From a virus (Duplodnaviria; Heunggongvirae; Uroviricota; Caudoviricetes), in IMG/VR virus record IMGVR_UViG_2627853638_000001, positions 1-25,512 of that record: a stretch of DNA of 25,512 bases; one strand, written 5' to 3'. Position 1 is the stretch's first letter. Every line of letters begins with the position of its first letter. A model generated the notes under the pieces. The model ran no database searches, was not told the origin of the DNA, and saw only the letters and a list, made by a program, of their open reading frames with translations. This document shows positions 17,198-22,703 of the stretch, one piece after another. The position numbers and the translations under genes are program-made.

Positions 17198-17206
17198 TCA
17201 GGCGGC
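17198..17206. repeat. IS1 target-site duplication, left copy (TCAGGCGGC)
   Basis: Identical 9-mer directly flanks both ends of IS1 copy 1. Confidence 0.85.
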
Positions 17207-17261
17207 GGTAATGCTGCCAACTTACTGATTTAGTGTATGATGGTGATTTTAAGGTGCTTGC

Positions 17262-17537
17262 GTGGCTTCCATTTCCATCAGATGTCCTTCCTGCTCCGCT
17301 ACTGAAGGCGTGGTGCGTAACGGCAAAAGCACTGCCGGACATCAGCGCTATCTCTGCTCTCATTGCCGTAAAACATGGCAACTACAGTTCACTTACACCG
17401 CCTCTCAGCCCGGTACGCACCAGAAAATCATTGATATGGCCATGAATGGCGTCGGATGTCGCGCCAGTGCACGCATTATGGGCGTTGGCCTCAACACGGT
17501 TTTACGTCACTTAAAAAACTCAGGCCGCAGTCGGTAA
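17262..17537 (+). CDS. insA: IS1 InsA
   Basis: [37 protein letters not shown]... (zinc-finger/HTH). Confidence 0.9.
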
Positions 17538-17959
17538 CCTCGCGCATACAACCGGGCAGTGATGTGATTGTCTGCGCTGAAATGGACGAACAGTGGGGCT
17601 ACGTCGGTGCTAAATCACGTCAGCGCTGGCTGTTTTACGCGTATGACAGGATACGGAGGACGGTTGTGGCGCACGTCTTCGGTGAACGCACTCTGGCCAC
17701 ACTGGAGCGTCTTCTGAGCCTGCTGTCGGCCTTTGAGGTCGTGGTATGGATGACGGATGGCTGGCCGCTGTATGAATCACGCCTGAAGGGAAAGCTGCAC
17801 GTTATCAGCAAGCGTTACACTCAGCGCATTGAGCGACATAATCTGAATCTGAGACAACATCTGGCAAGGCTGGGACGGAAGTCACTGTCGTTCTCAAAAT
17901 CGGTGGAGCTGCATGACAAGGTCATCGGGCATTATCTGAACATAAAACACTATCAGTAA
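17456..17959 (+). CDS. insB: IS1 insB reading frame (expressed as InsAB' transposase by -1 frameshift)
   Basis: Matches InsB; frameshift site TTAAAAAAC at 17510-17518. Confidence 0.85.
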
Positions 17960-17974
17960 GTTGGAGTCATTACC

Positions 17975-17983
17975 TCAGGCGGC
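17975..17983. repeat. IS1 target-site duplication, right copy (TCAGGCGGC)
   Basis: Identical to 17198-17206. Confidence 0.85.
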
Positions 17984-18054
17984 CTCCTGATGTTCTGAGG
18001 GTGCAGAAATCCCTCCGGTTAAGGATTAAATTTTATTTGCTGTGCTAAATTTAA

Positions 18055-18510
18055 TTATTCAGTTTTTATTCCTGCTCTCAAAACAGCCTCTGCCATTCTG
18101 ATATCCGGATTTTCTGAAATCATCTTTTCCGGCGAGTCGCAATCACCACCACATTCAGTTATGCGTTCATGACCAAAACGAATTGTGGTTTTGTGCGCAT
18201 TAATCATTTGTGTAAGCGCATCTGTCAATTCTGCAATGCGTTTGTCTTTAACTTCCAGCTCTTTCAGTAAAGCCAGTACGTCAGGAGCGCTAACATCAAC
18301 GACGGTTACGCGCGATTTCAGGTAATGCTCATCCGCAAAAGTTCGACCAGTTTTAAAATATCCATCATCCCCCTCACCTGTGCAGGCATACACAATATGC
18401 GTTCTGGAAAATATGCGCTGTATCGACATTTCATCGCCACAAACAGGACATTCCGGCACCTGAATTGGTGAATAACGTTCACGTAATGCCTGGTAATTAG
18501 TCTTGCACAC
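18055..18510 (-). CDS. Hypothetical prophage early protein with a CxxC zinc-ribbon-like N-terminus, 151 aa
   Basis: ECPVCGDEMS motif. GTG start with strong AGGAG RBS; overlaps the stop of the upstream gene. Confidence 0.45.
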   Translation of the reverse strand: MCKTNYQALRERYSPIQVPECPVCGDEMSIQRIFSRTHIVYACTGEGDDGYFKTGRTFADEHYLKSRVTVVDVSAPDVLALLKELEVKDKRIAELTDALTQMINAHKTTIRFGHERITECGGDCDSPEKMISENPDIRMAEAVLRAGIKTE

Positions 18511-18802
18511 TGGCTGTCTCCTGAAAAATCACCGCATGCCCCAGTTTCTCCGCCAGCGCCAGTTCTGCCTTAGCGCCTGCTGACCGCTGCCAGCCTTTCA
18601 GCATGTAAATCGCATCCACACAACGAATCATCGCCATGCAGATATCCATGTACTGCGGCTGTGTCAGCCCGTCCGGAAGTACTGCCGGGTTTAAGACGGT
18701 ATGCCCTTCCCGTTTCAGTTCCTCTTCCGCATTGTGAAACGCCTCACGGTTGAAATTTTTATACCCGGTCATTGGACCGGCGATATAGACTCTCACCCTC
18801 AC
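18497..18802 (-). CDS. DUF4406-like protein (nucleoside 2-deoxyribosyltransferase-like fold), about 100 aa
   Basis: N-terminus VYIAGPMTGYKNFNREAFHNAEEELKREGHTVLNPA is the signature I associate with DUF4406 prophage proteins. Start codon is uncertain (GTG candidates). Confidence 0.5.
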   Translation of the reverse strand: MRVRVYIAGPMTGYKNFNREAFHNAEEELKREGHTVLNPAVLPDGLTQPQYMDICMAMIRCVDAIYMLKGWQRSAGAKAELALAEKLGHAVIFQETASVQD

Positions 18803-19221
18803 GCCATCACCTCCTGAAAATTACCCTGATAAAACGACAATATGCGCTGCATAACTTCGCTCTTCCGGCACTCGCGACAGATTATGTTTAGGCGACTGTC
18901 GTAGCGACGTATTTCTCCGTCAGGTAATGACCAGATAAGGTCCGGATCAACCGCAGATGGTTTCTTCAGCTTTGCCCTTGAGAGCTTTTTACGGGCATTT
19001 TGCCAGTCCTTACGCGCCTGTTCAGACGGGAATAACCCGTAACCAGAGTTGTATACATCGCCACTGGCAACCAGCTCTCTGGCCAGAACGCTCATCAGAT
19101 ATCTTGTTGCCCCAGTTTTAGCTTCCAGTTGTCGTAACGTCTCGCGCCCACTCTGGCGTACGAGTTCAAGAACCTGCCCTTTAATTTTTTCCCGCTCTTC
19201 TTGTGTAAAAACTTTTGCCAC
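18799..19221 (-). CDS. Hypothetical prophage early protein, 140 aa
   Basis: GTG start with AGGAGG RBS; translationally coupled to the DUF4406 gene (overlapping stop and start). Confidence 0.4.
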   Translation of the reverse strand: MAKVFTQEEREKIKGQVLELVRQSGRETLRQLEAKTGATRYLMSVLARELVASGDVYNSGYGLFPSEQARKDWQNARKKLSRAKLKKPSAVDPDLIWSLPDGEIRRYDSRLNIICRECRKSEVMQRILSFYQGNFQEVMA

Positions 19222-20829: not shown

Positions 20830-21080
20830 GAATCAACTCCCATCAGCTTTTTCGTAGTAGTTTTATTCCTGCCAATAGTTAAAATTGCATCGGCAGAAAA
20901 TAATCCGTTTGATGCAAGAGCGATTTTTTCAGCGTAATTTGTTTCGCCGGTATATTCTGTGCGAGGCAATTTTCCGTTATCCATCCATTTATAGATTGCT
21001 CTTTGGCTGACACCACAAACGTCGGCCACAACAGCAACGCGAACAGTTTTGATTACATCTTCAAGTGTTTTCTGGTTCAT
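20826..21080 (-). CDS. Cro/YdaS-like small HTH regulator, 84 aa
   Basis: Start at MNQKTLEDV with RBS GAGGG. HTH-like segment VADVCGVSQRAIYKW. Divergent from the repressor gene. Confidence 0.5.
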   Translation of the reverse strand: MNQKTLEDVIKTVRVAVVADVCGVSQRAIYKWMDNGKLPRTEYTGETNYAEKIALASNGLFSADAILTIGRNKTTTKKLMGVDS

Positions 21081-21096
21081 ATCACCCTCACAATGT

Positions 21097-21135
21097 GAAC
21101 TTTGAGTACATGCTATAACAGAACTGACAGTACAT
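21097..21135. promoter_or_regulatory. Putative operator: two 15-bp direct repeats (GAACTttGAGTACAT and GAACTgaCAGTACAT) in the divergent promoter region
   Basis: 13 of 15 positions identical, 24 bp centre to centre, between the cro-like and repressor genes. Confidence 0.45.
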
Positions 21136-21159
21136 TCAAGAGCGAATATCATTGAACTT

Positions 21160-21579
21160 ATGGTTCATGAAGATAAAGCGCGTAAAGAGTTCGCCAGTAG
21201 GCTTGCGCTAGCCTGTGAAAACGCTGGTTATGAACAACATGGAAGGCAGGCAGAAATTGCCCGTCGAATGAAATTAACACCAAAAGCGGTTAGCAAATGG
21301 TTTAATGGCGAAACAATTCCTCGCCGGGAGAAATTAAGGGAATTAGCAACACTAATAGGAACAACACCAACCTATCTTTTGGGAGAGGATACAGAAGAAA
21401 GTGGACAGGTACGTTTCTATCAGGAGTTAAATCCAAGACAAAAAATCATCATTGACCTTCTGGACGAGCTCCCTGACAGTGAGACAGATGAACTTTTAAA
21501 AACTCTTGAAGAGAAAAAACAGAAGTACAATGCAATTTACGAAGAGTTAGCACGAAAGAAAAAACAAAAAGCCTCTTAA
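21160..21579 (+). CDS. DicA/RacR-like XRE-family repressor, 139 aa
   Basis: N-terminal HTH; the C-terminus LDELPDSETDELLKTLEEKK resembles the DicA C-terminal region as I recall it. Divergent from the cro-like gene. Confidence 0.6.
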   Translation: MVHEDKARKEFASRLALACENAGYEQHGRQAEIARRMKLTPKAVSKWFNGETIPRREKLRELATLIGTTPTYLLGEDTEESGQVRFYQELNPRQKIIIDLLDELPDSETDELLKTLEEKKQKYNAIYEELARKKKQKAS

Positions 21580-21910
21580 ACCAGCATAAATCCGGTAGCG
21601 CCTTCCTCCGGGTTTGTGCTTCACTTTATCCCATCTCATTTTTTTACACACAAAATGTACCATAAGCACTTTACAACAATGAACGCAAAGTACATTATAT
21701 ACCTGCCACCCACCCCGCCCCACAGAATGCAGGGCAATACTTCGAGTTACCAGGCAGTGGTCAGGGGTTAAGTAGCCAGCCCGAGGCGTAAGAACATGAC
21801 GGCAGGGTTCAACTTTAATAACTATGCAGCAGGTTTTTGTTCCGCTACCCCGGCGTTAAGGGGAAATGAGGTCAGCATGGATACTATCGATCTTGGGTAA
21901 TGACTCCAAC

Positions 21911-22414
21911 TTACTGATAGTGTTTTATGTTCAGATAATGCCCGATGACCTTGTCATGCAGCTCCACCGATTTTGAGAACGACAGTGACTTCCGTCCCAG
22001 CCTTGCCAGATGTTGTCTCAGATTCAGATTATGTCGCTCAATGCGCTGAGTGTAACGCTTGCTGATAACGTGCAGCTTTCCCTTCAGGCGTGATTCATAC
22101 AGCGGCCAGCCATCCGTCATCCATACCACGACCTCAAAGGCCGACAGCAGGCTCAGAAGACGCTCCAGTGTGGCCAGAGTGCGTTCACCGAAGACGTGCG
22201 CCACAACCGTCCTCCGTATCCTGTCATACGCGTAAAACAGCCAGCGCTGACGTGATTTAGCACCGACGTAGCCCCACTGTTCGTCCATTTCAGCGCAGAC
22301 AATCACATCACTGCCCGGTTGTATGCGCGAGGTTACCGACTGCGGCCTGAGTTTTTTAAGTGACGTAAAACCGTGTTGAGGCCAACGCCCATAATGCGTG
22401 CACTGGCGCGACAT
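21911..22414 (-). CDS. insB: IS1 insB reading frame (copy 2)
   Basis: Protein identical to copy 1 InsB. Confidence 0.85.
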
Positions 22415-22608
22415 CCGACGCCATTCATGGCCATATCAATGATTTTCTGGTGCGTACCGGGCTGAGAGGCGGTGTAAGTGAACTGTAGTTGCCATGTTTT
22501 ACGGCAATGAGAGCAGAGATAGCGCTGATGTCCGGCAGTGCTTTTGCCGTTACGCACCACGCCTTCAGTAGCGGAGCAGGAAGGACATCTGATGGAAATG
22601 GAAGCCAC
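22333..22608 (-). CDS. insA: IS1 InsA (copy 2)
   Basis: Protein identical to copy 1 InsA. Confidence 0.9.
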
Positions 22609-22703
22609 GCAAGCACCTTAAAATCACCATCATACACTAAATCAGTAAGTTGGCAGCATTACCCTGCAACCGCTATGAAAAAGGCGGGAAAGATGGCATC
22701 ACA

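Follow-up and report, generated by a model that had tools for sequence, protein, structure and literature searches.

Two separate IS1 events, an adjacent deletion and a later simple insertion, probably produced the inverted IS1 pair in a decaying Shigella boydii prophage

We analysed a stretch of 25,512 nucleotides (hereafter the window; its sequence is that of contig AMKG01000019.1), which covers the early region of a defective lambdoid prophage with DicA-type immunity in Shigella boydii. Two identical IS1 copies stand here in inverted orientation around the immunity and replication module. Very likely they go back to two separate events in a decaying prophage, an IS1 adjacent deletion at copy 2 and a later simple insertion of copy 1. 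With two separate events, the pair would be a by-product and not a transposed unit.

The repeat search found one inverted repeat, with arms of 768 nt at 17207-17974 (+) and 21896-22663 (-) that are 100% complementary and have 3921 nt in between. Together with the direct comparison of the copies, this bears out the earlier note, which had described identical inverted IS1 copies around a 3.9-kb module. The features of the two copies are as follows.

17198..17206, no strand: left target duplication of copy 1, TCAGGCGGC, 9 bp
17207..17974, plus strand: IS1 copy 1, 768 bp (repeat search, domain matches)
17207-17229: IRL of copy 1
17262-17537: insA of copy 1
17456-17959: insB' frame of copy 1
17513-17519: AAAAAAC slippery run of copy 1
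17952-17974: IRR of copy 1
17975..17983, no strand: right target duplication of copy 1, TCAGGCGGC
21896..22663, minus strand: IS1 copy 2, 768 bp, no target duplication, replaces ~1.8 kb

The element has the length of an IS1 (~768 bp) and ends in 23-bp imperfect inverted repeats (IRL GGTAATGCTGCCAACTTACTGAT; IRR, reverse-complemented, GGTAATGACTCCAACTTACTGAT), the IRR end beginning with GGTAATGACTCC... when read into the element. Pfam assigned the InsA N-terminal and C-terminal domains (PF03811, PF12759) and DDE_Tnp_IS1 (PF03400), NCBIfam assigned transpos_IS1 (NF033558), and InsA is present with an overlapping InsB' in the -1 frame and an A6C slippery motif. In size, termini, insA/insB' organisation, slippery site and the 9-bp duplication of copy 1 it resembles the IS1 of E. 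coli and Shigella and differs in nothing essential; its ends read GGTAATG, while those of K-12 IS1 read GGTGATG. The duplication is absent at copy 2, as expected after a deletion.

Copy 1 was thought to be a simple insertion with a perfect 9-bp duplication, and both its flanks and intact empty sites in relatives confirm this. The chance of such a 9-bp match is ~4e-6. When the IS and one duplication copy were removed, the reconstructed empty site was matched in one piece in 20 E. coli genomes (100% of the length, identity up to 99.9%). The intact empty site with a single TCAGGCGGC was also present in relative L002 and in L003 and L033, which are related, Shigella-type contigs. The insertion lies in the ~90-bp spacer that separates the Ea22-like gene from the gene following it in the rightward early operon:

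16765..17187, minus strand: gene of 138-140 aa, function unknown (gene calls; candidate starts 17187 and 17181)

This gene lies just downstream of copy 1 along early transcription, and a Pfam search of its product gave no match. From the ATG at 17187 the IS1 end is 19 nt and the duplication 10 nt away; from the ATG at 17181, annotated as the start in L002 and also called in Sb227, the distances are 25 nt and 16 nt. Neither candidate agrees with the 11 bp that the earlier note had given as the distance from copy 1 to a gene start. Its suggestion that copy 1 displaced the promoter of this gene also found no support: the scan of the intact site gave a single promoter-like match against 1.4 expected, which is at chance level, and the gene belongs to a co-directional early operon.

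The following genes lie between the IS1 copies. The first six, the early-right genes, together span 18055..21080 on the minus strand and were assigned by Pfam, the annotation of relatives and gene calls; the repressor was assigned by Pfam and NCBIfam, with a match to the DicA subfamily of E 2e-15, below the cut-off.

18055-18510, minus strand: Ead/Ea22-like gene
18497-18802, minus strand: DUF4406 gene
18799-19221, minus strand: DUF977 gene
19262-20338, minus strand: putative replication/DNA-binding protein, 356-358 aa
20404-20829, minus strand: YdaT-family gene
20826-21080, minus strand: Cro-like HTH gene
21160..21579, plus strand: DicA-like prophage repressor (HTH_3), 139 aa

This repressor occurs in many Rac-type and serU-type prophages; all matches of its exact-protein look-up were E. 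coli prophages free of the IS, with no Shigella variants among them. In the relatives, the repressor is followed by ydfA, ydfB, ydfC, DicF, dicB, DUF1482 and then the exonuclease, as in the dicB operon of Qin/Rac-type cryptic prophages. The window differs from this operon in that the repressor and 19 nt of ydfA are all that is left, and from K-12 Qin in the location of the prophage, which is the serU-mtfA attachment site instead of the K-12 Qin site.

The interruption of this gene order coincides with copy 2, whose IRR end faces ydfA and whose IRL/insA-promoter end faces the exonuclease gene. Its flanks, TCGATCTTG (21887-21895) and CTGCAACCG (22664-22672), differ from each other, and neither matches the copy 1 duplication in either orientation. 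Re-examination of the boundaries gave no matching duplication, so the non-matching flanks reported for this copy hold. In the alignment with relative L001, window position 21895 corresponds to 7336 and position 22664 to 9135; 1798 bp are missing and the IS1 is in their place. The comparison with L002 gave the same picture. Against the IS-free relatives the window has lost ydfA from codon 7, ydfB, ydfC, DicF, dicB and DUF1482, together with nt 1-245 of the exonuclease gene. Two gene remnants border copy 2:

21877..21895, plus strand: ydfA (DUF1391) remnant, ATG and 16 nt (MDTIDL), cut in codon 7 by copy 2
22664..24860, plus strand: 5'-truncated exonuclease gene, matches L001 from 9135; an 813-aa gene in relatives

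In L001, ydfA is the CDS 7318-7473, and the window match stops at 7336/7337. DicF was matched with 76.7 bits in the stretch of the relatives that is missing here, and a DicF search of the window gave no match.

The exonuclease gene lost its start codon and ribosome-binding site with its 5' end. In frame, an ATG first occurs at 22704 and opens a frame of 718 codons, which should be annotated as a 5'-truncated remnant without start signals of its own. At the IS1/exonuclease junction there was no outward promoter-like site, the only match being the insA promoter, which is on the minus strand and reads inward. The exonuclease VIII profile was matched only over positions 83-603 of 877, and the C-terminal domain is Rv2179c-like and not the RecE nuclease domain. 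The claim that a deletion at copy 2 took the 5' end of a RecE-like gene is thus supported for the deletion, which at ~1.8 kb also removed the whole ydfA-dicB/DicF operon, and needs correction in the RecE label.

The related contigs carry other versions of the copy 2 deletion. In the window type, copy 2 is joined to 21895 on the left and to exonuclease nt 246 on the right. L003 shares this left junction and has its right junction at nt 41, so that 205 bp more are kept, while L033 has the same right junction and a left junction at window position 20914, so that 981 bp more are lost, the repressor included. The deletions therefore form a series with a common IS terminus and a distal end point that differs, on the right in L003 and on the left in L033. 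Since both contigs lack copy 1, copy 1 is later than copy 2. Judged from the nesting, the window state may descend directly from the L003 state, or the latter may represent an independent deletion. The comparison with relatives lacking one or both IS1 copies, which the earlier note had proposed as a check, supports simple insertion and adjacent deletion through both the IS-free relatives and these two contigs with copy 2 only.

Copy 2 bears the signs of an adjacent deletion: the joint still contains the IS, its duplication has gone and neighbouring DNA of the relatives is missing. Intramolecular target-primed transposition, which is typical of IS1, leaves an element without direct repeats (PMC9330008). 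In the mechanism we propose, the IS1 of copy 2 would have landed in the leftward dicB-type operon and would then have promoted adjacent deletions, in which one end of the IS transposes intramolecularly into DNA close by, the IS1 stays and the target duplication is lost. The net loss in the window lineage is ~1.8 kb, from ydfA codon 7 to exonuclease nt 245, and in the sister lineages the end point at this IS1 is either shallower on the right or deeper on the left. A later plain insertion of an identical IS1 with a 9-bp duplication (copy 1) gave the inverted pair. The IS1-promoted adjacent deletions of the gal region and Tn9 likewise have the IS at a novel joint, a lost duplication, one end at the IS terminus and the other variable. 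Our case differs from them as a natural strain polymorphism, outside any selection experiment, that affects both sides of one IS1.

The end points are nested and start from each end of the IS1, which favours an adjacent deletion and suggests that IS1 transposase, and not homologous recombination, made the deletions. One IS1 without a duplication would also be the product of RecA-dependent recombination between two IS1 in direct orientation, inserted separately in ydfA and in the exonuclease gene, with no role for transposase in the deletion; the final structure alone would be identical. However, each of the three junction states would then need an extra, correctly oriented IS1 within 0.2-1.8 kb and a recombination, and the second IS1 copy was absent from 5,426 E. 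coli genomes and from viral, genome and metagenome scans. We consider this route unlikely, though it deserves some weight.

The adjacent-deletion reading presumes an ancestor with the IS1, a matching duplication and undeleted neighbours, and scans of the E. coli genomes and of the viral, genome and metagenome sets revealed none. Its expected joint of the IS1 IRL end with TCGATCTTGGCAACAA, which represents IS1 in ydfA with the duplication and an undeleted right side, was not found in the viral and genome collections. Neither copy 2 junction occurred in the 5,426 complete E. coli genomes, and the left one was not found in the GTDB species representatives or the JGI metagenomes. With at least 80% coverage, one junction search gave 3 E. 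coli records, all two-piece matches at 90.6-93% identity that represent other nearby IS1 insertions, and the other search gave 0.

The arrangement with both IS1 copies was present in 12 assemblies (the window and 11 others), all collinear. They include CP000036.1, CP026731, CP099865, CP049285 and CP026811, and several are complete chromosomes; CP000036.1 is the chromosome of S. boydii Sb227 (PMC2808357). An assembly artefact, with IS1 repeats collapsed or mis-joined, might be suspected since IS1 is highly repeated in Shigella, where it is the most abundant expanded IS (PMC7373316), and since most contigs with the truncated exonuclease gene, in 47 of 57 blocks, are 2-5 kb long and break at the IS. 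But the same linkage across both copies was found in the 11 other assemblies, and the assemblies differ by strain-specific SNPs and IS629 polymorphisms. An artefact is extremely improbable, and the independent complete chromosomes exclude the repeat collapse that had been named as a possible refutation.

Inverted IS1 pairs are able to transpose as composite elements, for example Tn1681, and the geometry of the present pair fits. A Tn1681-like transposon could in principle have brought the immunity/replication module as a unit, or the pair could stem from a duplicative inversion of a single IS1. Yet the pair is bordered on the outside by unlike sequences, TCAGGCGGC and CTGCAACCG, and has no target duplication at its outer ends, the module has the same order and orientation as in IS-free prophages, and it occurs with a single IS1 in L003 and L033. 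A duplicative inversion would moreover have split copy 1's own direct duplication. We give these origins almost no credence. Like the composite IS1 transposons (Tn9 with direct and Tn1681 with inverted copies), the locus has two intact, identical IS1 around 3.9 kb, and it differs from them in the missing outer duplication, in a content native to the locus and in the different arrival times of the copies. At the assembly level, the module had the same orientation in 12/12 assemblies, collinear with the IS-free relatives, and no inverted module was seen among the 12. The idea that the pair could invert or mobilise the module is hypothetical, and the locus shows that two IS copies in inverted orientation do not always make up a transposon or an invertible switch. 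Inversion and duplicative inversion were also rejected on the flanks of the two copies, which are not reverse complements, and on the collinearity of all blocks.

We also looked for gene conversion between the IS1 copies in the SNP patterns across strains and found no support for it. The lineage-specific SNPs 245G>A, 390G>A and 421T>A are in copy 2, whereas copy 1 has none, and can be accounted for without conversion.

With an IS1 adjacent deletion followed by a separate insertion, the locus is a clean natural example of a single IS1 eroding a Shigella prophage stepwise. It also gives a concrete route for the loss of this DicF/dicB copy in a strain, Sb227, from which DicF was reported absent (PMC3318445). 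The loss of the division-inhibitor genes was presumably neutral or beneficial. A more far-reaching reading, that the nested deletions (three or more) to the left and right of a single IS1 may reflect selection against the DicA-controlled division inhibitors DicB/DicF (and in one lineage against the repressor too), and that the inverted pair could act as a composite transposon or invertible cassette for the immunity/replication module, seems to us very improbable. The event is of an already known kind and has little importance beyond book-keeping.

The erosion of this prophage by insertion sequences is ordinary IS-driven genome decay in Shigella, and two further elements take part in it:

13491..14754, plus strand: IS600-type IS3-family element, 1264 bp, ORFs of 100 and 272 aa
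25422..25512, no strand: end of an IS629-type element, a 1310-bp element in the integrase gene

The IS600-type element cuts the prophage within the DUF968 gene and so sets the left limit of the remnant; its junction is common to the window, L003, L033 and all S. boydii loci. The IS629-type insertion is polymorphic among strains and is missing from Sb227, L018, L019 and L021.

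A repeat search of the window returned a single inverted repeat, with arms of 768 nt each at 17207-17974 (plus strand, copy 1) and 21896-22663 (minus strand, copy 2) that are 100% complementary and separated by 3921 nt. Direct comparison showed that the two IS1 copies are identical in sequence. Both have the termini GGTAATGCTGCCAACTTACTGAT at one end and ATCAGTAAGTTGGAGTCATTACC at the other, and IS1 carries two overlapping ORFs: one of 91 aa encodes the InsA zinc-ribbon and HTH domains, the other, of 167 aa, the IS1 DDE domain. The sequence TCAGGCGGC stands on both sides of copy 1, at 17198-17206 and 17975-17983. 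The flanks of copy 2, TCGATCTTG and CTGCAACCG, match neither each other nor, in either orientation, the copy 1 duplication. The earlier note had described an inverted pair of identical IS1 copies with a duplication at copy 1 only and, small details apart, the repeat search and flank comparison agree. The AAAAAAC run of copy 1 lies at 17513-17519. In three assemblies (L004, L018 and L030) copy 1 is 767 bp long, with a 1-nt deletion at position ~304 of the element (window ~17510), 3 nt upstream of this slippery run; this may be a true frameshift in insA or an error of sequencing.

Positions 14755-25421 are the early region of a lambdoid prophage, whose intact relatives occupy the tRNA-Ser/mtfA site in E. 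coli (the IS-free L001 and L002). Its features are:

Minus strand, leftward: Cro-like HTH protein
Minus strand, leftward: YdaT-family protein
Minus strand, leftward: 356-358-aa protein, named replication protein O in phage records
Minus strand, leftward: DUF977
Minus strand, leftward: DUF4406
Minus strand, leftward: Ead/Ea22-like protein
Minus strand, leftward: 138-aa protein
Minus strand, leftward: hokD/sok, with the sok antitoxin adjoining hokD (Rfam match at 16108-16283, above the gathering score)
Minus strand, leftward: DUF968 gene, cut by an IS600-type element
Plus strand: DicA-like repressor
Plus strand, present in relatives only: ydfA, ydfB, ydfC, DicF, dicB, DUF1482
Plus strand: exonuclease, 813 aa
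Plus strand: DUF4224
Plus strand: integrase, interrupted by an IS629-type element from 25422

The left flank of copy 2 stops at L001 7336 (ydfA nt 19, codon 7) and the right flank begins at L001 9135 (exonuclease CDS nt 246), therefore 1798 bp are missing at copy 2. The comparison with L002 gave the same picture. The suspected deletion, the 5' end of the exonuclease gene included, was thus correct. The missing DNA holds ydfA, ydfB, ydfC, dicB, DUF1482 and a DicF match (76.7 bits). DicF had no match in the window and is reported absent from strain Sb227 (PMC3318445). Three states of the copy 2 locus were found:

State A, window and 11 other assemblies: left end 21895 (ydfA codon 7), right end exonuclease nt 246 (22664), copy 1 present
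State B, IMG/VR contig L003: left end as in state A, right end exonuclease nt 41 (205 bp more kept), copy 1 absent
State C, L033 (AMGB01000051): left end window 20914 (981 bp more lost), right end as in state A, copy 1 absent

In L003, the 205 bp that precede the window break point are retained next to IS1, and the deletion is 1593 bp. L033 has additionally lost the ydfA stub, repressor and operator region, along with the 5' part of the cro-like gene. The three states therefore represent deletions next to one IS1 copy, anchored on each of its termini. Intramolecular target-primed transposition is typical of IS1 and leaves the element without direct repeats (PMC9330008); deletions anchored on both termini are its expected product. 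The transposase probably made these deletions, recombination between IS1 copies since lost being the less likely route. Scans of 5,426 E. coli genomes and of viral, genome and metagenome collections found no undeleted ancestor, and copy 2 originally inserted in either ydfA or the exonuclease gene. In the most parsimonious order, state B would come first and state A without copy 1 next, followed by either gain of copy 1, giving the window, or leftward deletion, giving state C.

Copy 1 had been read as a simple insertion, which its empty site confirms. We took out the IS and one duplication copy; of 5,426 complete E. coli genomes searched with the resulting 824 bp, 20 matched at 100% length in one piece (best identity 99.9%). 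The L002 alignment runs through the site with a 9-bp overlap. The site is also empty, with a single TCAGGCGGC, in L003 and L033, both with the IS600 junction. Since these two carry copy 2, copy 1 arrived after it.

Copy 1 lies in the spacer of ~90 bp that separates the Ea22-like gene from the 138-140-aa gene (16765-17187, minus strand). It does adjoin this gene's start, but the 11 bp given earlier was loose: the distance from the ATG at 17187 is 19 nt to the IS end and 10 nt to the duplication; from an alternative ATG at 17181 it is 25 nt to the IS end. The proposed promoter displacement was not upheld. The genes from cro through DUF968 are all co-directional, and the sole promoter-like match in the intact spacer (TTGAGA-16-AATAAT) is at chance level (1 vs 1.4 expected). 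A polar effect on the operon is more likely. At 17190-17206 (minus strand GCCGCCTGAAAGGGCGG) a small G+C-rich hairpin, with a stem of 5 bp and a loop of 6 nt, closely precedes the start codon of this gene. Copy 1 targeted the 5' arm of the hairpin, and the duplication leaves the hairpin intact beside the gene.

Inversion or mobilisation of the bracketed module had also been suggested. All 12 assemblies with both copies (CP000036, CP026731, UAUO01000009, PSSU01000002, AMJZ01000023, AMKG01000019, AMKB01000038, CP099865, AFGC01000013, CP049285, JWSL02000004 and CP026811) are collinear with the IS-free relatives, which speaks against inversion. They are distinct strains, differing in IS629 insertions and in SNPs in copy 2 (245G>A, 390G>A). 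No duplication is common to the outer flanks, and the DNA between the copies belongs to this locus, therefore the two copies did not come in together as one unit. That they form an inverted pair is coincidental, the outcome of two separate events; in principle, transposition or inversion could still occur. In Shigella, IS1, IS2, IS4, IS600 and IS911 have expanded massively, IS1 being the most abundant (PMC7373316). The structure is real and reproducible, and what is known of IS1 behaviour accounts for it in full, in a genome noted for IS expansion.

Read from its first in-frame ATG (22704-24860), the truncated exonuclease gene encodes a protein that has exact copies in 57 blocks of the assembly collection. 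CP000036.1, the chromosome of Shigella boydii Sb227 (PMC2808357), holds this protein and the same arrangement, and AMKG01000019.1, another carrier of the protein, agrees with the window at 100% identity across the part compared. Scanning IMG/VR for the two copy 2 junctions gave L004, with the window arrangement, and L003.

The exonuclease matches the exonuclease VIII profile in the non-catalytic part alone (positions 83-603 of 877), and its C-terminal domain is Rv2179c-like, a DEDD-type 3'-5' exonuclease. The name RecE-like therefore fits the N-terminal region but not the C-terminal domain, which is not the RecE PD-(D/E)XK; the protein is a chimera. No RecT gene follows it, unlike in Rac-type relatives. 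The gene has lost its start codon and ribosome-binding site, and it is cut off from the operon promoter that lies upstream of ydfA. A promoter scan saw no outward promoter-like site at the joint with IS1, and the remnant gene is most likely silent. Without dicB and DicF there would be no toxic cargo for the DicA-like repressor to keep silent, so later repressor loss, as in L033, would be harmless.

The prophage remnant is severed inside DUF968 by the IS600-type element of the IS3 family (13491-14754, 1264 bp, ORFs of 100 and 272 aa). Its flanks are unmatched (..CAC / CTG..), and it joins a Mu-like tail/baseplate remnant to the middle of the DUF968 gene. All related loci have this joint, a further IS-associated deletion or rearrangement. 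Enteroinvasive E. coli gives the best match to the window's left 13 kb, which hold btsSR, yehQ, a chromosomal ipaH gene beside tail-fibre genes, and the Mu-like remnant tail genes. Rfam matches above the gathering score were the IS009 sRNA (6027-6246) and CssrB, the chromosome-encoded Shigella sRNA B (6987-7166). The IS629-type element (1310 bp) is in the integrase gene of the window, L016, L017 and L031, and absent there in Sb227, L018, L019 and L021. In CP162048 (L026; reverse complement 7485-8794) the same element sits within copy 1, at the position of window 17849-17851, and a 3-bp CTG is duplicated. Beyond the nested element, CP162080 (L025) has unrelated DNA, which points to an additional rearrangement.
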